64,000 nt of DNA from Flavobacteriales bacterium (GCA_046329105.1 JAXLVH010000001.1:614686-678685); one strand, 5' to 3'; positions 3,370 through 58,013 are shown, counted from the first letter of the stretch. Numbers and translations: made by a program. Notes: a model not told the origin generated them from the letters alone.

Positions 3370-3908
3370 CTTCAGCCGGTGTTACCGCGCGAAGGTATTT
3401 GCTGTTCGGCCAACCGGGAGATCGTTCATCGGGCATTCGACGCCGTGGTGTCAGGCAGGTGCAGCACGCTGGATCCACAACGGCAGTACGTGGATATACC
3501 TGGATGGCCCTTGCATAGGCCTTGCTTATCGGGATCATCGGATCCGTGTTCAACCGTGTGCCGCCATGCAACCCGTTGCGCCGCCAGTCGCATGGAGGAT
3601 CGACCCGGCGGCCCTGCTCCGGTAGAATCGCACCACGTGTAGCATCGGTCCGGTCAACCTCTCGGATCGGGGTCCCAAAATGCTTTGCGAATTGGTCCGA
3701 TCCAAATGCTCCCCCACGTCCTTTTACGTGTACCACACCACGTTGAATTACGCTGGCGCCCGCTTGCGTGATCCATCTGCTTTGTACCGCACCCATCGCC
3801 GTTCCTCGCGCCAGCACGGCCATACCTCATTTCGGGCATGGTGGTTCCGGCAGGTGTTCCTGCTTTGGGTGGTGTTGCTCGACGTACTGAACCAACAACA
3901 ACAGACCG

Positions 3909-46846: not shown

Positions 46847-46933
46847 TCACCACAGAGGCACAGAGGACACGGAGAATTCGAACAGGACTTAGCGAAGGCA
46901 TCCTCCTTTGTGCTCTCTGTGCCTCTGTGGTGA
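46847..46933. repeat. CACAGAG-family inverted repeat pair
   Basis: tcaccacagaggcacagag (46847-46865) and its exact reverse complement (46915-46933). Confidence 0.9.
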
Positions 46934-46957: not shown

Positions 46958-47914
46958 ATGACTTCCACAGCAACCCCGAACAAGGTGAAGGTTGCCCCCC
47001 ATGGCGACCGCGCCATCCTGATCACCCGCAGTTTCAACGCGCCGCGCGAACTGGTCTTCGATGCGTTGAGCAAACCGCCCATGGTGAAGAAGTGGCTGAA
47101 CGGGCCACCGGGCTGGTCCATGACCACCTGCATGATCGACCTCCGCGTTGGCGGCAAGTTCCGCTACGCATGGCGAAACCAGGCCGGCCATGGCATGGGC
47201 TTGAGCGGTGTGTACAAAGAGGTGGTGCGCCCGGAGCGCATCGTGAACACGGAGGTCTTCGAGCCTGCGTGGTATCCGGGCGAGGCGTTGTCGACCACGG
47301 TGCTCACCGAGAAGAAAGGCACCACCTTGATGACGATCACGGCGCGGTACGACTCGTGGAAGACCCGCGACGAGGTGCTCGCATCGCCGATGGAAGGCGG
47401 ACTGGAGTTCAGTTACCAGGAGTTGGATGCGCTCCTGGCCAAGAAGATCGCGTCAGGCTCCAAGACGTCTTCGTCCCGCACCGGCAGGAAGGCCAAGCCA
47501 GGGAACGCTTTGTTCTCCGGCGTCTCCGAGCCGGAGCTGGTGGATGCGTACATGAAGACATTGAAGCATCCGCTCAAACCCGTTGCGGAACAGTTGCGCA
47601 AGGTGATCCTGGCCGCGGACAAGTCGATCGGCGAGGGCATCTACTGGAATGCGCCGTGCTTCTACTTCACCGGAAAGATGGAGCCCTTCGACCCGAAGAC
47701 CTACAAGCGCTACATCGTCGGCTTCAACTTCTTCAAGCAGGACACGCTACGCCTCATCTTCCTGCGCGGCGCAGATGTGGAGAAGCAGGGCGGCCTGCTC
47801 ACCGGCGACTATAAGGATGGTCGTCGGCTCGCGCTCTTCAGCAGCATGGCCGACGTGAAGAAGCATGAGAAGGAACTGAAGCGGATCGTGAAGCAACTCA
47901 TCAAGACCATGTAA
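46958..47914 (+). CDS. SRPBCC-DUF1801 fusion protein
   Basis: N-terminal I.ITRSFNAPRELVFDA..EVVRPERIV.TE; C-terminal LRKVIL....IGEGIYWNAPCF..RLIF.RGA..G.Y.DGRR. Confidence 0.85.
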   Translation: MTSTATPNKVKVAPHGDRAILITRSFNAPRELVFDALSKPPMVKKWLNGPPGWSMTTCMIDLRVGGKFRYAWRNQAGHGMGLSGVYKEVVRPERIVNTEVFEPAWYPGEALSTTVLTEKKGTTLMTITARYDSWKTRDEVLASPMEGGLEFSYQELDALLAKKIASGSKTSSSRTGRKAKPGNALFSGVSEPELVDAYMKTLKHPLKPVAEQLRKVILAADKSIGEGIYWNAPCFYFTGKMEPFDPKTYKRYIVGFNFFKQDTLRLIFLRGADVEKQGGLLTGDYKDGRRLALFSSMADVKKHEKELKRIVKQLIKTM

Positions 47915-49377: not shown

Positions 49378-49396
49378 TCACCACAGAGGCACAGAG
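49378..49396. repeat. Solitary CACAGAG-family arm
   Basis: tcaccacagaggcacagag identical to 46847-46865; no partner arm seen. Confidence 0.85.
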
Positions 49397-49456: not shown

Positions 49457-49951
49457 ATGAGCAAGCTCCAACGCACCCAAGCCTGCCTGTGGTTCCCTGG
49501 CAACGCTGAAGAGGCCGTGGCCTTCTACATGGGCATCTTCCCGAATTCCAGGATCATCAGCAAGCCGGTCGTATCCGAGGAAGTATCCACGGCGAGCGGA
49601 CTGCCCGTGGGTTCGGTGCTCTGCATCGAGTTCGAGCTGGACGGCGAGCTGTTCCTGGCGCTTAACGGCGGTCCGCAGTTCAAGTTCACCGAAGCTGTTT
49701 CGCTCATGGTGCGCTGCAAGGACCAACAGGAGATCGACCACTACTGGAAAAAGCTCAGCGCGGGCGGGCCACCCGAAGCGCAGATCTGCGGCTGGCTCAA
49801 GGACAAGTACGGATTGAGCTGGCAGGTGGTCCCCGCCATGCTTACCGACATGATGCGCGACGCCAAGGGCTATGACCGCATGATGGTGGCGCTGATGGGC
49901 ATGAAGAAGCTGGTGATCGCGGAGCTGGAGAAGGCGTTCAAAGGCAAGTAG
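49457..49951 (+). CDS. VOC/PhnB-like protein (3-demethylubiquinone-9 3-methyltransferase-like annotation)
   Basis: CLWF...AEEA..FY..IF, ALNGGP.FKF.EAVS..V.C.DQ.EID.YW, CGWLKDKYGLSWQVVP, MKKL.IA.L. Confidence 0.9.
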   Translation: MSKLQRTQACLWFPGNAEEAVAFYMGIFPNSRIISKPVVSEEVSTASGLPVGSVLCIEFELDGELFLALNGGPQFKFTEAVSLMVRCKDQQEIDHYWKKLSAGGPPEAQICGWLKDKYGLSWQVVPAMLTDMMRDAKGYDRMMVALMGMKKLVIAELEKAFKGK

Positions 49952-49977
49952 AACAGCAGGCAACCAACGCTCAACCC

Positions 49978-50424
49978 ATGAAAGCCGCAAACACAACGGA
50001 CTACCTGGCCGCGCTGCCGATCGACCAGCGCAAGGCCTTGGAAATCCTGCGCAAGCATATCCTTGCCGCAGCCCCCGGCGCGGAAGAATACTTCGGCTAC
50101 GGCCTGCCCGCCTTCAAGTACAATGGACATCCGTTGGTGTACATCGGCGCGGCCAAGAACCACTGCGCGCTGTACGGCGCGGTGCCGCCCGGGTTCAAAG
50201 AGAAGCTGAAAGGCTTTATCGTGAGCAAAGGCACGATCCAGTTCATGCCGGAAAAACCCTTGCCCGCCGGGCTGGCAAAGGAGATCGTGAAGGCGAAATG
50301 CGCGGAGATCGAGGTGCGGTGGCCGGTGAGGGAGGTGAAGAAGGTGAAGGAAGTTAAGAAGGGGAAGAATGTGAAGGTGGTGAGGATGGTGCAGAAAGCG
50401 ACGAAGAACCCGGTGAAGGAGTGA
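49978..50424 (+). CDS. DUF1801 (YdhG-like) protein with low-complexity basic tail
   Basis: DYLAALP...R.ALE.LR..I, YGLPAFKY.G.PLVY, KGTIQF...KPLP. Confidence 0.82.
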   Translation: MKAANTTDYLAALPIDQRKALEILRKHILAAAPGAEEYFGYGLPAFKYNGHPLVYIGAAKNHCALYGAVPPGFKEKLKGFIVSKGTIQFMPEKPLPAGLAKEIVKAKCAEIEVRWPVREVKKVKEVKKGKNVKVVRMVQKATKNPVKE

Positions 50425-50936
50425 TGAGGTCCGGACCGCCGATATGGAAACATGTGCGTGACGTGCTCATACTTCCCGTTACCGTTACCTGCGTGATCCC
50501 GTGGTTGATCCATGCAGGGTCGCCAGCATGGATGCCGACAGGTACCGTTGTGTCATGGTTGGCCGTGGTGCTCTTCTGTTCTGGCTTGCTGCTGTTCGCA
50601 ACCACGCTGGCAGCTTTCGTGAAGCGGGGCAACGGAACCCTGGCGCCCTGGACCCCCACACAACGACTGATCGTTTCCGGCCCCTACCGCTATTGCCGCA
50701 ACCCGATGATCACCGGGGTGCTGCTCATCCTGTGCGCCGAGGCACTTTGGCTGAGGTCAGGTTGGATCGCCGTGGAAGCCGTGATCTTCTTCGCCGTGAA
50801 CACCGTGTACTTTATCCTGGCTGAGGAACCAAGCATGGAACATAGATTCGGGCAGGACTACCGCGCGTACAAAGCAGATGTGCCGCGTTGGATCCCGCGC
50901 CTGAAGCCTTACTTCGCAAGTCCAGACATTCCATGA
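50424..50936 (+). CDS. Isoprenylcysteine carboxylmethyltransferase/PEMT-like membrane protein
   Basis: G.GTLAPW.PT..L.VSGPYRY.RNPM..G, EEP...RFG..Y..YK..VPRWIP. Confidence 0.85.
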   Translation: MRSGPPIWKHVRDVLILPVTVTCVIPWLIHAGSPAWMPTGTVVSWLAVVLFCSGLLLFATTLAAFVKRGNGTLAPWTPTQRLIVSGPYRYCRNPMITGVLLILCAEALWLRSGWIAVEAVIFFAVNTVYFILAEEPSMEHRFGQDYRAYKADVPRWIPRLKPYFASPDIP

Positions 50937-51292
50937 AAACCCAGGACTACGCCCGCGTCTTCGCCTACTCCTTCGCCTCCATCTACCCCATGTACGTGCA
51001 GAAAGTGGAGAAGAAGGGCCGCACCAAGGCTGAACTGGACCAAGTACTCTGCTGGCTCACCGGCTACGATACCAAGGGCCTGCAAAAGCAAATTGCCAGC
51101 AAGTGCGACCTGAAGACCTTCTTCGCCGCCGCGCCACGCATGCACCCGAATGCCACCCAGGTCACCGGCATGATCTGCGGGGTGTGCATCGAGGAGATCG
51201 AAAACCCGCTGATGCGCGACATCCGCCGCATGGACAAGCTGGTGGATGAACTGGCCAAGGGAAGGGCGATGGAAAAGATCCTGCGCGCTTGA
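50933..51292 (+). CDS. DUF2200 family protein
   Basis: FASIYP.YV.KVEKKGRTK.ELDQV..WLTGY, FFA.AP, ITG.ICG, R.MDKLVDELAKG; ATGA overlap. Confidence 0.9.
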   Translation: MKTQDYARVFAYSFASIYPMYVQKVEKKGRTKAELDQVLCWLTGYDTKGLQKQIASKCDLKTFFAAAPRMHPNATQVTGMICGVCIEEIENPLMRDIRRMDKLVDELAKGRAMEKILRA

Positions 51293-51301
51293 AGAAATGC
51301 A

Positions 51302-51414
51302 CACCACAGAGGCACAGAGCACACAGAGAACCGAGCAGCGCAGGACGGATCTTGCGTTGCTATATTGGTGTTGAAATCATAGTATTCCTCTGTGTGCTCT
51401 GTGCCTCTGTGGTG
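51302..51414. repeat. CACAGAG-family inverted repeat pair (27-bp arms)
   Basis: caccacagaggcacagagcacacagag (51302-51328) / ctctgtgtgctctgtgcctctgtggtg (51388-51414), perfect. Confidence 0.9.
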
Positions 51415-51426
51415 AACCGGAACTGA

Positions 51427-52011
51427 ATGAACCCCAACGACCCCTCCCAGCAACTCGTCCTTGCCTTCGAGACCGCCAAGGAATGGGACACCTGGCTGGC
51501 GAAGCACCACGCGACCTCCACGGGCGTGTACATCCGCGTGGGCAAGAAGGGCAGCGGCATCCGCTCCATCACCTGCCCCGAAGCCCTGGAAGTGGCCCTG
51601 TGCTACGGCTGGATCGATGCCATCCGGAAAAGCCATGATGCCAACACCTTTCTACAGCGCTATTGCCCGCGCGGCCCGCGCAGCATCTGGAGCGAGATCA
51701 ATAAGAAGAAGGTGCAGCAGCTCATCAAAGCCAGGCTGATGCTACCAGCGGGTCTCGCCGCCGTGAAGCGCGCAAAGGAAAATGGGCAATGGGACAAGGC
51801 TTATGCGCCGGCCAGCAGCATCACCGTGCCGCCGGACCTGGAAGCCGCGCTGAAGAAGAACAACAAGGCCCGCGACTTCTTCGCCACACTGAAAGGCAGC
51901 AACCGCTATGCATTTCTCCATCGCCTGCACACGGCCAAGAAGGCCGAAACGCGCGCGCGGAGGTTGGAGCAGTTCATCGGCATGTTGGAACGCGGCGAAA
52001 CGTTCTACTGA
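51427..52011 (+). CDS. YdeI/OmpD-associated (bacteriocin-protection-like) protein
   Basis: W..WL..HH, EALE.ALCYGWID, R...S.WS..NK, AGLAAV..AK..G.W..AY, AKKAETR.RR. Confidence 0.9.
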   Translation: MNPNDPSQQLVLAFETAKEWDTWLAKHHATSTGVYIRVGKKGSGIRSITCPEALEVALCYGWIDAIRKSHDANTFLQRYCPRGPRSIWSEINKKKVQQLIKARLMLPAGLAAVKRAKENGQWDKAYAPASSITVPPDLEAALKKNNKARDFFATLKGSNRYAFLHRLHTAKKAETRARRLEQFIGMLERGETFY

Positions 52012-52022
52012 ACAACAATGCC

Positions 52023-52457
52023 ATGAACGACCGTGAAGTACGCACCACCCGGATCATTGCCGCCCCATGCGAGCGGGTCTTTGCGGCATGGACCGATCCC
52101 GCACAGCTCGCGAGCTGGTGGGGACCGCAAGGCTTCACCAACACCTTCCACCGTTTCGAGCTGAAGCCGGAGGGTATGTGGGAGTTCACCATGCACGGCC
52201 CGAACGGCATGGACTTCCACAACACCTGCGTATTCAAGCGTATCGAACCGCCCGGCTACCTGGAGTTCGACCACTTGAAGGAAATGCACTTCTACAAGGC
52301 GATCGTGAACTTCACCGGAGTGGAAGGCGGCACGCGCGTCGATTGGATCATGCGCTTCAACACCATTGAGGAACTGGCGCCGATCCGCGGGTTCATTGAA
52401 AAGGCGAATGAAGAGAACCTCGATCGGATGGAACGGCAATTGACCAAGAAACCCTGA
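52023..52457 (+). CDS. SRPBCC/AHSA1-like protein 6
   Basis: R.I.AP.ERVF.AW.DP..LA.WWGP.GFTNTFH.F, MHGP.G.DF.N, ANEENLDR. Confidence 0.88.
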   Translation: MNDREVRTTRIIAAPCERVFAAWTDPAQLASWWGPQGFTNTFHRFELKPEGMWEFTMHGPNGMDFHNTCVFKRIEPPGYLEFDHLKEMHFYKAIVNFTGVEGGTRVDWIMRFNTIEELAPIRGFIEKANEENLDRMERQLTKKP

Positions 52458-52463
52458 AACCCC

Positions 52464-52988
52464 ATGCCTTACGTACTCCTGATCCTTGCCGTCCTCATCG
52501 TCGGCATCCTCATCGTGGCTTCCACGAAACCCAACACCGTCCACTACGAACGCAGTACAGTGATCAATGCTCCGCCGGAGAAGATCGTTCCGCACCTCGT
52601 CGATTTCCACAAATGGGAAGCCTGGAGCCCGTGGGAGAAGTTGGAGCCGGGCATGAAGCGGAGCTATTCTGGCGCGGCCAGCGGCGTGGGGGCTACCTAC
52701 GCCTGGGAAGGGAAAAAGAAGGCCGGTGCGGGCACCATGGAGATCTTGGAGACGGGCATCAGCGGCGTGAAGATCGACCTGCGCTTCATCAAGCCGTGGA
52801 AGGCTGAATGCATCGCGCAGTTCCATTTCACACCGCAGCCCAACGGCACAGACGTGCGCTGGTCGATGGACGGTCCCAACACCTTTATGGGCAAGATCTT
52901 CGGCTTGTTCATGAACATGGACAAGCTGGTGGGCAAGGATTTCGAGATCGGGCTGGCGGGGTTGAAGACGGTGGTGGAGAAGGATTGA
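52464..52988 (+). CDS. SRPBCC (polyketide cyclase/dehydrase-like) protein 7 with N-terminal membrane anchor
   Basis: Hydrophobic N-terminus; ERS..I.APPE, W..WSPW, GVGA.Y.W.G...G.G.M, G.DFE.GL..LK. Confidence 0.88.
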   Translation: MPYVLLILAVLIVGILIVASTKPNTVHYERSTVINAPPEKIVPHLVDFHKWEAWSPWEKLEPGMKRSYSGAASGVGATYAWEGKKKAGAGTMEILETGISGVKIDLRFIKPWKAECIAQFHFTPQPNGTDVRWSMDGPNTFMGKIFGLFMNMDKLVGKDFEIGLAGLKTVVEKD

Positions 52989-53012
52989 TCGGCCTCCGGT
53001 ACCTTCGCGTTC

Positions 53013-53504
53013 ATGGAAACTCACAGCGCCCAACGCACACGCAACAACGTTTCCACCCCCGCCCTTGATGAACTCCGCATCACCCGCGTGTTCAACGCGC
53101 CGCGCAAGCTTGTGTGGCAGGCATGGACCACCCCGGCCATGCTCGTGCATTGGTTCGGCTGCGCGGCCTTCAGCACCATCGATGCCGAGGCCGATGTGTG
53201 CGAGGGCGGCCAATGGCGCGTGGTGATGCGCGCCCCGGACGGCACGGACTACCCGGCTTACGGCACCTACACCGCCGTGCGCCCCATCGATCACCTGGCC
53301 TTTACGCACCAGTGGGAGAAGCAGGTGGTAGAGGTGAATCCCGCGAACCACCGCACGCAGGTGACCGTGGACCTGTACGAAGAAGGTGCGAAGACGCGCA
53401 TGGAATTCCGGCAGACGGGGCTTGCTTCAGAAGACTCCCGCGACAGCCATATCGGCGGGTGGTGCGACAGTATGGACAAGCTGGCGGAGCAGTTCGCGGA
53501 TTGA
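53013..53504 (+). CDS. SRPBCC/AHSA1-like protein 8
   Basis: ELRITRVFNAPR.LVW.AWT.P, D...GG.WR.VMRAPDG, GW....DKL; TACCTTCG box at 53000-53007. Confidence 0.9.
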   Translation: METHSAQRTRNNVSTPALDELRITRVFNAPRKLVWQAWTTPAMLVHWFGCAAFSTIDAEADVCEGGQWRVVMRAPDGTDYPAYGTYTAVRPIDHLAFTHQWEKQVVEVNPANHRTQVTVDLYEEGAKTRMEFRQTGLASEDSRDSHIGGWCDSMDKLAEQFAD

Positions 53505-53597
53505 TCCTTGCAGATCCCGCCGGTGTTTCCCTGCACCTGGAATGCAAAATGCCTGCCCGGGCGGAAGCGCGGACAGGCATTGTTGCTTTCGGTCCGT

Positions 53598-54914
53598 TCA
53601 GCTCTTCACCACGCGCTGCACGCCCACGGGCTTGCCTCCTTTCAGCAGTGAAATATGGTACACGCCGGGTTCGAGACCGCCCAAGTGGATCGTTCGGTCC
53701 ATCGGCAGGCGGCCTTGGCCTACCGTAGCGCCCAAAGCATTGACCACGCGGTATTCGGTCCCGGCCGGATCAATGTTGAGCAGGCGGACCTGGTCACTGG
53801 CCGGATTCGGAGCAACGCTGAATTGGGCCAGGGATGAAAGGTCCTGGATCGAAGTGGTGCCCAGCTGCTTCCGGTAAACATCGGTGCCACTGAACTGGGC
53901 AAAGACATAGCCGTTGAGTTCCACGAAATTGTACACAGCGAAGGTGGCGTACGGATCCTCAGGCAACCCCACGGTGTCCTTGGCGAAGGTTTGCCCGCCA
54001 TCCATGCTCAGGAACAGATCAGGGCGCGTGCCCATGTGCTGGTTCTGGCAGGACAACCAGATCGTGTTGCCACGCGTGAACATCGCCCCCACGGCGTGGG
54101 AGAAGCCCCAGATCCCCGGCTCTTGGACGAGGTAGGGCGCGGTGTTGATCGAGGTCCAGCTGGTTCCTTGGTCGGTGGAGTACTTCACGAAGCGTTCCTG
54201 GGTGGTCACATCCGTCCCGCTCAAGTACCAACGCCCGTTGGTGGGGTCGCGATCCAGCAGACCGATGGCATGCCATTGCGGAATGCCGTTGCAGTCCGGT
54301 GTCGTCCAGGTATTGCCCAGGTCGGTGGTATAAGCGAAGCCGTGCGATTCCGTTCCGCCCCCGGCGGTGAACAACGTATCGCCGTGGCTGCTGAACGCAC
54401 CCGGATCATTTGCGGCCAGCCAGGGCACGTGCGTCCAAGAAGCGTCCGTCTCGTTCTTCACGTAGTAGGCATCGGCATTGTCCGCATCCAGGGCGAGCTT
54501 TCCATTGAACCCATGGAGCTGGTTCACGCCGGCCTTGTTCGTTTGCGGCCAAAGGACGTGCGGCGGCATGCCCACCGTGTCGGAATGCCAGGCACCACCG
54601 TCATTGTCGGTCCAATAGATGTCGCCGGTGCCACCGGACATGGTGCTGGCCACATACAGCCGACTGCCCGTGCTGGTGATCAGGTGGATGTTGCCCACCA
54701 CCCCTGTGGTGGGAATGGTCGTCCAATTATCCCCATTGTCCGTGCTCTTTACCAAGCCCAGTGTGGAATTGTGCGCATACAGCGCACCTTGGTGGAGCCC
54801 GAGCGCGGTCCACGGTTCATTGTAGGCGGTGGTGAGCCCGACCGGTTCCCAAGCCTGGCCTTTGGCAACACCCAGAGCCGCCAAAAACAACAATGGAGTA
54901 ATGAACTTTTTCAT
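53598..54914 (-). CDS. T9SS CTD protein with BNR/Asp-box beta-propeller
   Basis: Signal MKKFITPLLFLAALGVAKG/Q; Asp-boxes STDNGDNW, TTDLGNTW, STDQGTSW, SMDGGQTF; CTD VAPNPASD..LEPGVYHI. Confidence 0.87.
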   Translation of the reverse strand: MKKFITPLLFLAALGVAKGQAWEPVGLTTAYNEPWTALGLHQGALYAHNSTLGLVKSTDNGDNWTTIPTTGVVGNIHLITSTGSRLYVASTMSGGTGDIYWTDNDGGAWHSDTVGMPPHVLWPQTNKAGVNQLHGFNGKLALDADNADAYYVKNETDASWTHVPWLAANDPGAFSSHGDTLFTAGGGTESHGFAYTTDLGNTWTTPDCNGIPQWHAIGLLDRDPTNGRWYLSGTDVTTQERFVKYSTDQGTSWTSINTAPYLVQEPGIWGFSHAVGAMFTRGNTIWLSCQNQHMGTRPDLFLSMDGGQTFAKDTVGLPEDPYATFAVYNFVELNGYVFAQFSGTDVYRKQLGTTSIQDLSSLAQFSVAPNPASDQVRLLNIDPAGTEYRVVNALGATVGQGRLPMDRTIHLGGLEPGVYHISLLKGGKPVGVQRVVKS

Positions 54915-55343
54915 GCTGTTCGGTTAATGCGGCGATTATACGCGGGCCAGAGGCCCGGAGTTATACGGTATGCACCGAAATTATCCGGGAAGGGGTCTGC
55001 GACCTGAACGGATCATGTCCGTGCATTCTGTCCCATCCATCGCCGCAGGTCCGCACAAAAGTGTGCTTCCGGGAAGGGACGTGCCCGCGTGATGGAACTG
55101 TTGCGTCTGCGCCAAGGGATGGCGACCGGTCATGGTATTTACTGATGCGGTGACGAAGATCCAGTTCCTCCGCTCGCGGATGCTGGTTGGTGAAGAAGAA
55201 TGGAAGCGAGGAGGAGCGCGGCATCCTCACGTCCTCTCTTCTTCACCCGTGACCTGGATCGACCGCTTCTTGGCCACCGTCTCAGTTGCGGATTTCCTTA
55301 GATGCCGGCGCTGGCGTACGCCTCCGTTCTTCGGTTCAGCAGA

Positions 55344-55447
55344 ATGGAGTTCGACTGACGGGCATGGCCGACGAGGTCTCGCGCGACAGCCACATCGGCG
55401 GCTGGTGCGACAGAATGGACAAGCTGGTGGGGCAATTCACGGGTTGA
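55344..55447 (+). pseudogene. Relic copy A of the 3' end of SRPBCC gene 8
   Basis: MEF[-1]LTGMADEVSRDSHIGGWCDRMDKLVGQFTG* aligns to 53400-53504 (MEFRQTGLASEDSRDSHIGGWCDSMDKLAEQFAD*); 104 vs 105 nt. Confidence 0.85.
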
Positions 55448-55548
55448 TCCGCTCCGGTTCGCCGGGAAAGTAGCGGCCCGGGGACCTCTTTGCGTTTCAG
55501 GCGACATCGCCGTTGCCATGGATATGGTTGGACGATTACATTCGTTGG

Positions 55549-56373
55549 ATGCCTGCCCAGGCGAACACCTCCGAGGTGTGCTTTGTGATCCCGCCCGCAC
55601 TGCGGGATGCGGTGAAGATGTTCTGGCAGATGGACCGGACAGGGCTGATGCATGGGCATGAGACCATCGTTCCAAAGGGCGTCGTGGAGATCATCTTCAA
55701 TTTATCGGCAGAAACAATTGTGCGCTACCGGAACGGGGCCGGACCACTGACGGTGCCGCGCGTTTTCCTGAATGGCTTCAACACCGCGCCTTTCCGGATC
55801 GCGCTTCCCGCGCATCAGCGCTTCCTGGGCATCGTGCTCCATCCCACCGCCGTGAAACGGATCTTCGGATTTCCGGCCAGGGAGTGTGCCGACTGGATCA
55901 TCGACCTGTCCCTGGTGGACCGCACCATGAACACCTTGTGGCATGAGGTGATCGAGCGGCCCACATTCACGGAACGCCGGGCTTTGCTGGTGGAATGGAT
56001 GGTGGCGCGCCATGCGCAGCCCACCGCGCGCGAGTGTGCCATGGACCGCTTCCTCGGCGACCATGCCAGCCAAGTGCCCACCGTGGTCCAGTTGGCCGAT
56101 CGGCTTTGCTGGTCAACGCGCCAATTGACCCGGCGCATGGAAGAGCTGACCGCCATGAACACCGAGCGGACCCTGCACTACATGAAGCACGTGGGTGCTT
56201 TGCACTTGATCCACCTTTCCCCGATGCCGCTCACGGCGATCGCCTACGCGAGCGGTTTCGCGGACCAGGCGCATTTCAACCGCTCGTTCAAAGCCTTCAC
56301 GGGCTATACGCCCATGGCATACCGGCAAGCCATGATCCCCATGGTGGGGCACCTCATGGAGAATGTCCGATAG
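55549..56373 (+). CDS. AraC family transcriptional regulator (DUF6597-like N-terminus)
   Basis: VPKG.VE.IF, GI..HP, S.RQL.R, L..IAY.SGF.DQAHF.R.FK.FTG.TP..Y; TACATTCG at 55537-55544 favours the 55549 start. Confidence 0.9.
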   Translation: MPAQANTSEVCFVIPPALRDAVKMFWQMDRTGLMHGHETIVPKGVVEIIFNLSAETIVRYRNGAGPLTVPRVFLNGFNTAPFRIALPAHQRFLGIVLHPTAVKRIFGFPARECADWIIDLSLVDRTMNTLWHEVIERPTFTERRALLVEWMVARHAQPTARECAMDRFLGDHASQVPTVVQLADRLCWSTRQLTRRMEELTAMNTERTLHYMKHVGALHLIHLSPMPLTAIAYASGFADQAHFNRSFKAFTGYTPMAYRQAMIPMVGHLMENVR

Positions 56374-56428
56374 GTTCAATTTTCCGGTTTGGGGTCCGCA
56401 GGAGATTTGCCGCCAAACCACTGGAACC

Positions 56429-56953
56429 ATGTCCAACGCAAAAAATACGCGCTCCACGGTCGGCTACTACCTGCTGATCTTATCGATGTTCGCGTTCTTC
56501 TCCGTTGCTGGCGCCAACGTCTATGAGTTGATCACCGAGGTCCCGAACTGGTCCTCCAACGTGCCGGAGTCCCTCATTGCCAGGCGCGCGAATATCACCG
56601 TGACCAACCCTGGACACTTTTTTCAGACCTTTTCCCCGCTTGCCATCCTCTGTCTGATCGCCTCAACCATCCTGCTGCGCAACCGGCCCAAGGAGGCCAA
56701 TAAGTGGTTGCTGATCTCCCTTGGCGGAATTGTCATTGCCGAAGCCTTCACGGGCATCTACTTCATGCCGCGCAACTTCACCCTCTTCCTGGACCCCATG
56801 GATGGCGTGCCCGTGGAGGCATTGCGTGCTGCAGCCTCAGAATGGGTGGCTGCGAACAAGGTGCGCCTCGCGCTGGTGTTGATCACCTGGTTCGTGCTGT
56901 TGAAAGCGTACGCCGTTGTCGCCATTGCCCGGCACCGGGAGGTGGGGCAATAG
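56429..56953 (+). CDS. DUF1772-like four-helix membrane protein
   Basis: Hydrophobic helices; G..YE....PNW, P..FF....PL, Y..PRN..LF, W...N.VR; downstream of AraC. Confidence 0.6.
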   Translation: MSNAKNTRSTVGYYLLILSMFAFFSVAGANVYELITEVPNWSSNVPESLIARRANITVTNPGHFFQTFSPLAILCLIASTILLRNRPKEANKWLLISLGGIVIAEAFTGIYFMPRNFTLFLDPMDGVPVEALRAAASEWVAANKVRLALVLITWFVLLKAYAVVAIARHREVGQ

Positions 56954-57007
56954 CTTGGTGGGTGAAGGCCCGCATCTCGCGCAAGGCTCCAAGCTCGTGC
57001 ATTTTGC

Positions 57008-57175
57008 AACCTCGATCACCGGCCCCAGGTGACCGTGGACCTGTACAAGAATGACAAGCGCACTCGACTGGAATTCAGGCAACCTGGTCCGGACAGCGAA
57101 GACCCGCGCGAAAGCCACATCGGCGGGTGGTGCGGCAGCATGGATAAGCTGGCAGATGCACTTGACAGGTGCTGA
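57008..57175 (+). pseudogene. Relic copy B of the 3' end of SRPBCC gene 8
   Basis: DHRPQVTVDLYKNDKRTRLEFRQPGPDSEDPRESHIGGWCGSMDKLADALDRC* vs NHRTQVTVDLYEEGAKTRMEFRQTGLASEDSRDSHIGGWCDSMDKLAEQFAD*; in-frame TGA at 56963 and no start codon. Confidence 0.88.
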
Positions 57176-57305
57176 TGGTCCTCATCGTCTGACAGGTTGA
57201 TCCGTTCATCCGCCGGACCAAGAATGAGGATATGGCAGATAACCGCATACCATACATCAAGGATCAGTGCGGCACCGGCCCCGGTTGCAGGAGCCGCGCC
57301 CTCCC

Positions 57306-58013
57306 CTACCTCCCAGTGAGGTACACGTAGTCCATCAACACGCTGCGAAGTAGCTCCTCGGCGTGCAGTTCAGTGGTGATCCCGAGCTCGCTCTTCACCC
57401 GATCGGTCATCGCCTGGATCGTCTTCGCCCTGCGTTGGCTGGTGCTCCGCAGGACCCGCTGGATCAGGCGTGCGTGCGCATCGCCCATGCGGAGCACCTC
57501 CGGATGGACCGGGACGTAGCCCTCGGGGATGTCGGCCAACAATGTGTCGCTCAATTGATACCGACGCTTCATCGAGACCACGCAGGTGCCCGCAGCGATA
57601 TCGCCCAAGCGCTGCCCCTTGCCGTTGAACAGGATCACCACCGCCCCAACGAAGGCCAACGCATCGATGGGCCGGAGCATCCAGCGCATGAGGTAGTGGC
57701 CCAGTCCGGGTTGGCCGCCATCGAGCCGCGCCACCTTCAGGTCCAGCGCGCGCTTGCCGATGCTCTTGCCATCCATGAACAGCTCGAACAGCAGGTTGTA
57801 GAAGGTCCACGGGATCCCGAAGATCAGGATCCAGAACCACTGCGGAAAGGATCCGAAGGAGATGTCCAGCCCATCGATGATCTGGTACACCAGGATCGTC
57901 CATCCGGCCAGCACGGTCCAATCCAGCATGGAGGCCAGTCCGCGGCCCACGATGGTGGCCACGTGATGCTCGATCACCACGTTCTGCGGTGTGTCGATCC
58001 GGATCGTTTCCAT
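57306..58013 (-). CDS. RDD family protein
   Basis: I.TPQNV.IE..A....R.LA...D, E.FMDG.SIGK, RW.LRPID, QRLGD..AGT.V. Confidence 0.9.
   Translation of the reverse strand: METIRIDTPQNVVIEHHVATIVGRGLASMLDWTVLAGWTILVYQIIDGLDISFGSFPQWFWILIFGIPWTFYNLLFELFMDGKSIGKRALDLKVARLDGGQPGLGHYLMRWMLRPIDALAFVGAVVILFNGKGQRLGDIAAGTCVVSMKRRYQLSDTLLADIPEGYVPVHPEVLRMGDAHARLIQRVLRSTSQRRAKTIQAMTDRVKSELGITTELHAEELLRSVLMDYVYLTGR

Follow-up and report, generated by a model that had tools for sequence, protein, structure and literature searches.

A gene tail present three times beside an ArsR-SRPBCC array in a Flavobacteriales bacterium: the probable remains of a decayed tandem array

How the 3' end of one gene came to be present three times, with genes of other kinds lying between the copies, is the question raised by a stretch of 64,000 nucleotides from a Flavobacteriales bacterium (GCA_046329105.1 JAXLVH010000001.1:614686-678685; hereafter the window). 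The gene, SRPBCC/AHSA1 gene 8 (called S8), scores 97.1 bits against the PF08327 profile (cut-off 22.1), and its host region is an array of eight SRPBCC paralogues with ArsR at the head, which S8 closes in 44 of 44 related loci. Its last ~160 nt, together with ~20 nt past the stop, occur three times in the window. A reading made from the DNA alone (the sequence-only reading) had proposed either an integration hotspot in which unrelated cargo was stacked, or tandem duplicates that had decayed to the same segment. S8 and the three copies, each of which opens one of the units called A, B and C, were delimited as follows.

53013..53504, plus strand: S8, intact AHSA1/SRPBCC gene, last of the ArsR-SRPBCC array (Pfam PF08327, E=1.2e-27)
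53343..53523, plus strand: copy 1, start of unit A; S8 from nt ~331 through the stop and on into the first ~20 nt of the spacer before araC (alignments)
55344..55465, plus strand: copy 2, start of unit B; 5'-truncated S8-tail relic plus the start of the spacer (alignment)
57011..57216, plus strand: copy 3, sole remainder of unit C; full-length S8-tail relic plus the start of the spacer and ~27 extra nt

A 40-nt core of the repeat (up to three mismatches allowed) was found exactly three times in the window and not at all in 100 shuffles, and copy-versus-copy BLASTN gave E values of ~1e-21 to 1e-22, which, with the alignments, bears out the earlier observation that the S8 end is present three times. 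Copy 2 matches copy 1 at 55344-55450 (80% over 99-108 nt), is startless, carries a 1-nt deletion and gave no match to the AHSA1 profile in Pfam. Copy 3 matches copy 1 at 57017-57156/57175 (76% over 143 nt) and keeps an open frame of 48 codons, which hits the AHSA1 profile weakly (E=0.008; 16.8 bits, under the 22.1 cut-off). The post-stop homology (TTGATCC...CGCCGG) extends for ~20 nt in all three copies, ending at 53523, 55465 and 57216, respectively, and in copy 3 is preceded by the ~27 extra bases. The three sites are thus those named earlier, with limits revised to reach ~20 nt past the stop and with the S8 homology of copy 3 beginning at ~57011-57017. Copy 2 is a 5'-deleted form of a relic that stays full length (162 nt) in two relatives, L011 and L065; compared with the L011 relic it is short of ~107-120 nt, made up of the flank and the first 68 nt of the relic. 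Relics were searched for in ~40 further loci with the C-terminal peptide (tblastn), and none was found in species other than that of the window, L011 and L012.

The segment between copies 2 and 3 contains three further features.

55513..56373, plus strand: AraC-family regulator (DUF6597 + HTH_18), unit B (Pfam; gene callers place the start at 55549)
56363..56953, plus strand: DUF1772/Anthrone_oxy-like membrane protein, unit B (Pfam PF08592, E=5e-5, below the gathering score)
56972..57010, plus strand: flank, i.e. the DUF1772 3'UTR with the first half of a terminator; its right end joins S8 nt ~331

Copy 3 of the window and the relics of L011/L065 and L012 all begin at one left boundary, S8 nt ~331, and are preceded by a common flank of ~45 nt that does not derive from S8, the window flank and that left of the L011 relic being alike over 37 nt (81%, z=10.9). 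The flank is homologous to positions 5754-5790 of L013, a single-copy relative which has S8, araC and DUF1772 and neither the T9SS gene described below nor a relic. There the same sequence forms an intact hairpin followed by U7, that is, a terminator, and homology between L013 and the window ends just ahead of copy 3 (at 57003 by BLAST, ~57010 by eye). Since the second half of the terminator is replaced by S8 sequence in the relic copies and the hairpin is whole in L013, the boundary is a novel join point, at which a candidate microhomology (GCGCAGCACGGC/GCGAACCACCGC) was read by eye, blurred by decay of the copies. The distances agree as well: copies 2 and 3 are 1,725 nt apart from start to start, and 1,721 nt separate S8 nt 331 from the terminator loop in L013. 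The S8-araC spacer measures 62 nt, of which the first ~20 nt are those found behind all three copies.

This shared boundary bears on the plainest explanation, that full-length S8 paralogues once stood at positions 2 and 3 and decayed independently. An array of eight SRPBCC genes would be a natural setting for such pseudogenisation, but independent decay would not have left two relics with one left boundary and one non-S8 flank in common. The relics are, moreover, S8-like specifically, the other paralogues of the array being 60-70% alike and in the N-terminal motif only, and no relative has a full-length S8-like gene at either relic position; the outcome that would have refuted the sequence-only reading was thus not observed. 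We consider this explanation hardly credible.

The interval between copies 1 and 2 differs in content, and its features are the following.

53524..55250 (right edge approximate), no strand assigned: putative secondary insertion into unit A, holding the T9SS/BNR gene and the region upstream of it between a terminator hairpin and the hairpin at 55189-55247
53598..54914, minus strand: BNR/Sortilin-like secreted protein with a weak T9SS C-terminal sorting domain (Pfam)
55293..55343, plus strand: araC', remnant of the araC 5' end, left from unit A (alignment to araC)

The genes between the copies are those described earlier, that is, a BNR/Sortilin-like gene with a weak T9SS tail, an AraC/DUF6597 gene and a DUF1772-like gene, the last below the Pfam threshold. 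The secondary insertion is bounded by a hairpin at 53537-53592 (-32.5 kcal/mol, z=-3.6) and by that at 55189-55247, which corresponds to inverted repeat I10. It is absent from L013, in which S8 continues directly into the araC spacer, and the BNR/Sortilin-like protein is 97% identical in L011, L012 and L065; judged from these comparisons, the T9SS gene would be a later insertion into the first unit. To its right, araC' aligns with araC positions 55540-55573 (26 of 33 nt; score reached in none of 500 shuffles), and its counterpart in L012 matches window 55504-55599 over 43 nt (z=11.9) and, in tblastx, over 32 aa (44-47% identity). The remnant is located left of copy 2 in the window, and in L011 and L012 it immediately precedes the flank; in those two relatives the DUF1772 3'UTR adjoins relic 2. 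Both pieces beside relic 2 suggest that the interval between copies 1 and 2 was once a second araC-DUF1772 unit, and the copy 1 to copy 2 start distance of 1,943 nt probably departs from the unit length because of the T9SS insertion and of deletions. Unit A would accordingly be left with the araC 5' remnant, unit B is intact, and unit C consists of the relic and ~20 nt of spacer, no significant trace of araC being found past 57200 in the window.

Our preferred explanation, to which we assign a probability of roughly 60%, is that the three copies are what is left of a head-to-tail array with a unit of 1,721-1,725 nt that was later broken up. The unit probably comprised S8 from nt ~331 to the stop, the 62-nt spacer, araC, DUF1772 and the first terminator half, and it seems fairly probable that no dedicated recombinase took part in forming the array. 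Tandem duplication, the second of the two earlier proposals, is retained here in altered form, as a decayed array in which the repeated unit is a 1.72-kb segment starting inside S8 and including araC and DUF1772, not the S8 gene. That several units existed is suggested by remnants, of which that of araC is short (33-43 nt of DNA, 32 aa in tblastx). A genome with two or more intact units was not encountered among 44 species-level loci, one metagenome pattern scan (which gave a single match, of the L011 type) and three context look-ups.

Direct observation covers the anatomy of the repeats, their common flank, the remnant of araC, the relative with a single copy and the junction in L007/L009. 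How the first join was made, and in what sequence the steps followed, is a reconstruction. A single illegitimate join of the terminator loop to S8 nt ~331, by tandem duplication or an equivalent one-sided import, would have come first, and a further unit would have been gained through unequal homologous recombination. Because the gene body was attached to the first S8 tail only, copies 2 and 3 would have become startless pseudogene fragments and drifted. The T9SS gene may then have entered the spacer of unit A, most of whose araC-DUF1772 part would have been deleted, after which the window lineage would have dropped another ~110 nt, losing the flank and with it the beginning of copy 2, and unit C would have been reduced to its relic and ~20 nt.

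Some observations count against a tandem array. The relics have closer relatives than copy 1: that of L011 shares 81% identity with copy 1 and 84-87% with S8 of other species. Copy 1 carries its own cluster of derived changes. Its tract from nt 343 to 477 shows 0-1 differences from L011, L012 and L013, whose S8 5' parts differ by 3-8%, and against the nearest species the divergence of this tract exceeds that of the S8 5' part by 9-11 points. The discordance of copy 1 thus requires, under the tandem-array model, that recombination later replaced the S8 tail; an imported 3' end would fit it as well. The tract that is near-identical in the four lineages also starts within ~15-30 nt of the relic boundary, and near that boundary, at the left end of the repeat, copies 1 and 3 have a 21-nt exact block in common (CAGGTGACCGTGGACCTGTAC; 57025-57045 = 53357-53377; P~0.012), which looks like an att core too. 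Lastly, the spacer homology of copy 2 stops near the same point (CGCCGG) behind copy 1 and copy 3 alike, and this common end of the spacer homology after copies 1 and 3 would have to be a coincidence.

The other earlier proposal is here taken as serial site-specific integration of integrase-dependent elements at the S8 3' end, each bringing a new gene end and displacing the previous one as attR, with the integrases later lost, in the manner of CIME accretion. The common left boundary of the relics with the 21-nt block upon it would be expected of such a process, the flank that they share might represent a P arm, the near-identity of the copy-1 tract (0-1 differences from three other lineages, with differing flanks) would fit, and so would the downstream side of S8, which differs in almost every species (the first downstream genes in relatives include PPDK, TPR, Exo_endo_phos and histidine-kinase genes). 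We nevertheless regard it as improbable. In line with the sequence-only reading, which saw no integrase, no integrase or transposase family was found in the window locus, beside the array or in L011-L013, nor was there one with at least two members among 108 ORFs downstream of S8 in 29 other species, in a scan that covered ORFs of 150-560 aa and listed families of two or more members. Reuse of the site is not seen in the ~40 species without relics. The supposed P arm is half of an ordinary terminator, whole in L013, and the T9SS interval, holding pieces of araC and of the DUF1772 3'UTR, is not an independent element; the stacking of unrelated cargo at a hotspot is not supported in the form proposed. 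L013 lacks the T9SS interval yet has an S8 end of the copy-1 type as far as the last codon, a state that precise excision would not restore. The exchange points also vary, with a break at 57152 in the loci L007/L009 (see below), the 21-nt block of copies 1 and 3 at the left end, and an L012 relic that resembles copy 1 over its first ~88 nt only (the block itself is not kept in the L011 and L012 relics, with five differences each), which argues for homologous rather than site-specific recombination. Very doubtful, too, is a cassette-like module composed of cargo, ~45-nt flank and S8-tail repeat, with CAGGTGACCGTGGACCTGTAC as its core, moved in trans by a recombinase encoded elsewhere; if it were real, these uncultured Flavobacteriales would possess an integron-like stacking site at the S8 3' end.

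The loci L007/L009 contain a tract of ~7 kb with 0-4 differences from the window, the homology ending at 57152 within copy 3, where the relic is fused to the native S8-tail/yaaA junction of that lineage. The yaaA ATG lies 72 nt from the S8 MD codons (ATGGAT) in L007/L009 and 72-75 nt from them natively in L032/L041, and the homology upstream of yaaA at the junction has z=5. L032 and L041 are empty sites in which S8 is joined to yaaA, and in a further one (L014) it is joined to a fucosidase gene; empty sites, as predicted, do exist, but S8 does not join the RDD gene in them. Ffh of the L007/L009 host is 94% identical to that of the window lineage, where 100% would be expected within one species, and the host lineage is therefore a different one. 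Relic copy 3 appears, from these comparisons, to have served as a homology arm in the recent carriage of the block into the L007/L009 lineage. The geometry foreseen earlier, a restored gene with the displaced native end distal to it, is indeed present there, and would have arisen by homologous exchange. The repeats seem since to have behaved as ordinary homology: they show what are probably patches of gene conversion, and at least one recent exchange between lineages would have had its right crossover in copy 3. More likely than the cassette-like module is that gene-tail relics can act as 'portable homology arms', homologous recombination ferrying accessory genes between lineages as in L007/L009.

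The same geometry lends itself to an explanation that we hold to be rather unlikely, in which a genome with a plain S8 received araC-DUF1772 and a donor-type S8 tail by one-sided import. The left end would have entered by homologous recombination, and the right end through a join within the S8 tail of the recipient, either illegitimate or at short homology. Such an import could have been a Campbell insertion of a circularised fragment or a case of homology-facilitated illegitimate recombination, with no integrase; the relics would be displaced native ends, and the second unit a register-shifted repeat of the process. Besides L007/L009 (tract ending in copy 3, native yaaA spacing, different host lineage), the discordance of copy 1 with the 5' part of S8 speaks for it, as does the observation that the relics resemble S8 of other species at least as closely as they resemble copy 1, and araC, for which no homologues above 44% identity were found outside its own 90% cluster, suggests a foreign origin. 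Import still depends, however, on that one illegitimate join and on a unit being added later, so that it differs from the tandem-array model only in the place of the first join. In the window and L010, the tail of copy 3 and its ~20 nt of spacer are of the same type as in copies 1 and 2, with a divergence about that of its body, and are therefore easier to explain as part of a copied unit than as a native end. In L007/L009, finally, the event is recent and secondary, because the copy 3/RDD junction is older (5% divergence of its surroundings in L010).

Compared with known systems, S8 and its seven paralogues fit the arrangement of ArsR-linked arrays of AHSA1/SRPBCC, DUF1801, GyrI-like, VOC and related small genes, a likeness that concerns the host array alone and is silent on the origin of the repeats. 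De Vries and Wackernagel reportedly described, in 2002, homology-facilitated illegitimate recombination, by which accessory DNA is imported via a flanking conserved sequence. The ~7-kb window-identical tract of L007/L009 resembles such import, with crossovers in the conserved array and in a short stretch of the S8 tail. Its right arm, unlike theirs, would be a pseudogene relic distal to the cargo, so that the exchange would bring the cargo in and fuse the recipient's own gene tail to the relic.

In the accretion of ICEs and CIMEs (ICESt1/ICESt3 at fda; PAISt at bacA), direct repeats of a gene 3' end likewise part integrase-free accessory blocks. CIMEs keep att sites after the loss of integration genes (PMC5704250), and PAISt makes use of repeated site copies at the bacA 3' end and is excised in modules (PMC4057263). 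Those att sites have a defined core, cut by an integrase that is known, and their blocks were left by mobile elements, related or unrelated. Here no recombinase was found in the loci and ORFs scanned, the left arm is half of a neighbouring gene's terminator, the blocks repeat one another, and exchange occurred at varying points.

A close likeness is to tandem segmental duplication: the units stand head to tail and have one length, their one novel junction lacks long homology, relatives show a single-copy state, and copy number shifts further through unequal homologous recombination. In the patAB duplication of Streptococcus pneumoniae, the join points are independent of homology and the duplicated units unstable (PMC4432121). 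Laboratory duplications are young, identical and unstable, whereas the copies described here are 20-27% diverged, mostly deleted and fixed within a species; the unit also begins inside a gene, each extra unit thus opening with a gene-tail pseudogene, and one unit contains the unrelated T9SS gene. Overall, the locus appears to be an ordinary genome scar, a further case of an already known type of feature.

S8, the eighth and final SRPBCC gene of the ArsR-headed array, carries a tail (its last ~160 nt) that was found to recur twice more in the window, in both cases without a start. The tail of S8 itself is called copy 1, and the two relics downstream are called copies 2 and 3:

53013-53504, + strand, S8, intact AHSA1/SRPBCC gene (Pfam PF08327, E=1.2e-27) ending in copy 1
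55344-55450, copy 2, relic of the S8 tail (80% identity over 99-108 nt; 1-nt deletion)
57017-57175, copy 3, relic of the S8 tail (76% identity over 143 nt)
55293-55343, araC 5' remnant (26/33 nt match; score reached by 0/500 shuffles)

A 40-nt core with at most three mismatches occurred three times in the window versus none in 100 shuffles, and homology among the three copies extended ~20 nt beyond the stop codon (TTGATCC...CGCCGG). These alignments confirmed the threefold 3' end reported by the sequence-only reading, and the gene content it had placed between the copies (a T9SS/BNR surface-protein gene between copies 1 and 2, araC and a DUF1772 gene between copies 2 and 3) was also borne out. 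Copies 2 and 3 should accordingly be annotated as pseudogene fragments. Scans of the region for tRNAs, Rfam families, tandem repeats, and promoters or terminators returned nothing relevant; TRF reported no duplication at a ~27-nt extra segment in copy 3, which had been read as a duplication by eye. A 17-mer, ATGGACAAGCTGGTGGG, is common to S7 (a Polyketide_cyc2 protein gene; 52917-52933) and copy 2 (55411-55427) and encodes MDKLVG in both (repeat family D4), probably by chance or micro-conversion.

The feature is best read, with a probability of roughly 0.6, as the remnants of a tandem segmental duplication, an event of a known kind, altered by later insertion, deletion and homologous exchange. 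The window lineage belongs to the uncultured Flavobacteriales and is often encountered in metagenomes of activated sludge (GCA_018267155.1 and GCA_019694775.1 are examples), and a scan of species-representative genomes located S8 orthologues at 99-39% identity in 44 loci. S8 was the final gene of the array in all 44, and the content downstream of it varied from species to species. A C-terminal peptide search located extra S8-tail fragments in the window species and in the two relatives nearest to it (loci L011 and L012), and in none of the ~40 other loci. The informative relatives are arranged as follows:

L014, S8 at 88% identity: S8 directly beside alpha-L-fucosidase
L013, S8 at 93% identity: S8, araC-DUF1772, SBBP protein, fucosidase; no T9SS gene and no relic
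L012, S8 at 97% identity: S8, T9SS gene, relic, PorP and CHU_C proteins, fucosidase
L011 and L065, S8 at 99% identity: S8, T9SS gene, full-length 162-nt relic, then other genes

Homology between L013 and the window covers 52998-53507 and 55344-57003, and thus stops just short of copy 3, and the L011 relic has its orthologue in window copy 2, which lacks ~110 nt on its 5' side. Context look-ups with the window S8, AraC and RDD proteins returned only the window arrangement and the downstream variants of the related contigs L007/L009 and L010.

Array membership is itself gained and lost among close relatives, and gene content also differs in the related loci L019, L022 and L047. In L013, a ~1.66-kb insertion between S7 and S8 (L013 2060-3737) carries an additional ArsR-like gene, with 49% identity to the array ArsR. 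SRPBCC gene 4 (46958-47914) encodes an AHSA1 and DUF1801 domain fusion of 318 aa, in an array that also has separate genes for these domains. The arm CACCACAGAGGCACAGAG of a REP-like palindromic element occurs five times in the window versus none expected, and the element could promote rearrangements within the array:

46848-46932, 49379-49396 and 51302-51414, REP-like element, two complete palindromes and one half, all in intergenic gaps of the ArsR-SRPBCC array

The anatomy of the relics identifies the repeated segment. Copy 3 and the relics of L011/L065 and L012 have a common start at S8 nt ~331 and the same ~45-nt non-S8 flank on their left; outside the window lineage, a metagenome scan for this flank returned a single contig, L065, of the L011 type. 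The flank is homologous to the DUF1772 3'UTR of L013 (37 nt, 81%, z=10.9), where together with the following bases it folds into a hairpin followed by seven U, that is, an intrinsic terminator. In the relic copies, S8 sequence stands in place of the second hairpin half and the U-run, so that the flank/S8 junction is a derived join point, which cuts the terminator in its loop. An araC 5' remnant lies directly left of the flank in L011 and L012 (the L012 remnant is 79% identical over 43 nt, z=11.9, and 44-47% identical over 32 aa, aligning to window 55504-55599) and directly left of copy 2 in the window, and each copy is followed by the start of the S8-araC spacer. Shared flank, araC remnant and spacer start together imply that a further araC-DUF1772 unit formerly lay between copies 1 and 2. 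Copies 2 and 3 repeat at a period of 1,725 nt, which matches the 1,721-nt single-copy segment of L013. With the shared flank, the araC remnant and this unit-length spacing, the fallback of the sequence-only reading, tandem duplicates decayed to the same segment, came close to the arrangement found.

Several further similarities were set aside. A putative DUF1772 3' coding remnant left of copy 2 was rejected, the similarity there being to the araC 5' end, and a 15-nt araC-like match downstream of copy 1 (4/1000 shuffles) was treated as chance. No significant araC or spacer trace was found after copy 3 (57200-57310) or after the L011 and L012 relics. The tail of the L012 relic might possibly be a native L014-type tail (10/13 nt and equal distance to the stop), for which local alignment was not significant (z=1.4). 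A hairpin with 24-bp arms upstream of the T9SS gene (55189-55247) is still a hairpin in L012 (~3560-3620) despite sequence change and is deleted in L011; it could represent another REP-like element or, alternatively, a terminator at the right-hand boundary of the T9SS insertion. A search of 5.8 billion proteins gave the AraC/DUF6597 regulator (55549-56373) no homologue beyond 44% identity, members of its own 90% cluster aside; the nearest were in Balneolaceae and Hymenobacter, and together with DUF1772 the regulator looks like a clade-specific acquisition.

The order of events in the duplication history can be reconstructed as follows. A single illegitimate join of the DUF1772 terminator loop to S8 nt ~331 would have produced a head-to-tail repeat of S8 tail, spacer, araC, DUF1772 and half terminator, from which unequal recombination could have generated at least two complete units plus a partial third one (units A, B and C, beginning with copies 1, 2 and 3). 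The S8 body being attached to the first tail only, the other tails would have been startless from birth. In unit A, the T9SS gene and its terminator hairpin would have been inserted ~20 nt into the spacer, and a stretch of ~1.4 kb between araC codon ~30 and the DUF1772 3'UTR deleted, giving the L011/L012 state; another ~110 nt would then have been lost in the window lineage. Unit C was presumably cut off after its relic, which now adjoins the RDD cluster, and L013 would either never have been duplicated or have collapsed back to a single unit.

Copy 1 fits this scheme least well. It is not the nearest relative of the relics, it has a private substitution cluster, and across its tract (S8 nt 343-477) L011, L012 and L013 each depart from the window at 0-1 positions, against 3-8% in their 5' parts; relative to the nearest species, the divergence of the tract exceeds that of the S8 5' part by 9-11 points. 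At its left end, the repeat contains a 21-nt block that is identical in copies 1 and 3 (P~0.012). These misfits and the block suggest one of two histories: a recombinational replacement that gave S8 its present tail once the duplication existed, or an origin of the first join in a one-sided import, which would have brought in araC-DUF1772 together with a donor-type tail. The latter is the main rival and is considered rather unlikely. A sharp recombination boundary of the copy-1 tract at the relic start was partly withdrawn, as divergence from L013 declines gradually along S8. Mosaic blocks of identical and diverged sequence are common throughout the region, showing that these lineages often exchange DNA by homologous recombination. 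Strains that are otherwise nearly identical are unusually variable in a short patch immediately upstream of the repeat boundary (53243-53354; S8 nt 231-342): L011 shows 8 differences within 52 nt and L012 shows 12 in ~104 nt, with identical sequence on either side. L010 equals the window over 50,000-53,600 and 55,400-56,400 and differs by up to ~10% in patches of the T9SS/BNR gene and upstream (53600-55000); within the species, these alignments mark the gene as mosaic or fast-evolving.

Repeated gene 3' ends around accessory genes are a textbook signature of integrative elements, and the sequence-only reading had preferred an integration hotspot at the S8 3' end. Under that explanation the copies would be att scars of site-specific elements stacked at S8, which we consider improbable. 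The locus encodes no recombinase, and neither do the variable regions of L011-L013, which hold genes for T9SS cargo proteins, PorP, HGD-D, BcrAD_BadFG and fucosidase; among 108 ORFs of 150-560 aa downstream of S8 in 29 other species, no integrase family appeared twice, and the neighbours were ordinary genes. The supposed cargo modules are copies of each other, what would be the P arm is one half of the terminator of a neighbouring gene, and the exchange points vary from case to case. L013 lacks the T9SS interval, yet its tail is of the copy-1 type up to the last codon, which is not expected after precise excision.

In contigs L007, L009 and L055 (three independent assemblies), window homology stops at 57152, inside copy 3, and yaaA-ffh-folD follows. 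A native S8/yaaA-ffh-folD arrangement exists in the related loci L032 and L041, and in L016 with one intervening gene. The yaaA ATG lies 72 nt from the MD codons (ATGGAT) of copy 3 in L007, versus 72-75 nt from those of the S8 tail in L032 and L041, and the bases upstream of yaaA are homologous between L007 and the native loci (z=5; 0/1000 shuffles). The L007/L009-type Ffh (P0137) and that of the window-type assembly GCA_019694775.1 (P0159) are 94% identical; in the latter, ffh stands in another context, without yaaA or folD. The L007/L009-type YaaA was found in few contigs. Judged by these genes, the three contigs belong to a lineage other than that of the window, and an ancestral status of their arrangement for the window species was rejected on the same Ffh evidence. 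L007/L009 differ from the window by 0-4 positions over ~49,950-57,000, by 2-29% per 250 nt in the array to the left, and by five positions inside copy 3. This pattern reads as the footprint of a recent ~7-kb homologous exchange, in the right crossover of which copy 3 would have paired with the recipient's own S8 tail, importing the T9SS gene, araC and DUF1772. The window-type copy 3/RDD junction is older, because L010 has it too, with ~5% divergence around it. The near-identical tract points to genes having moved recently between activated-sludge lineages that differ at species level. In the L007 type, yaaA is in frame with the copy 3 relic (L007 12544-13551), and gene callers predict YaaA proteins of 294 aa (P0132) and 331 aa (P0012/P0134), with 24 or 61 extra N-terminal codons from the relic. 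In L007 itself, though not in the other contigs, a TAG lies within the relic. The predicted extension is either an annotation artefact or a real fusion.

The value of the case is twofold. L007/L009 offer a natural example of a distal pseudogene relic serving as a homology arm, the right-hand crossover of a recent inter-lineage exchange that would have brought three accessory genes "into" the recipient's gene and given yaaA its predicted in-frame extension. The locus is also a look-alike warning, as the picture of an integrative element would here be the product of a single illegitimate join, unequal recombination and decay, with no integrase involved. In telling integrative elements from decayed duplication, it is comparison with close relatives that decides, not the sequence alone. 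The closest look-alike among known systems is CIME-type accretion at gene 3' ends (PMC5704250; PMC4057263), from which the present locus differs in the defining features.
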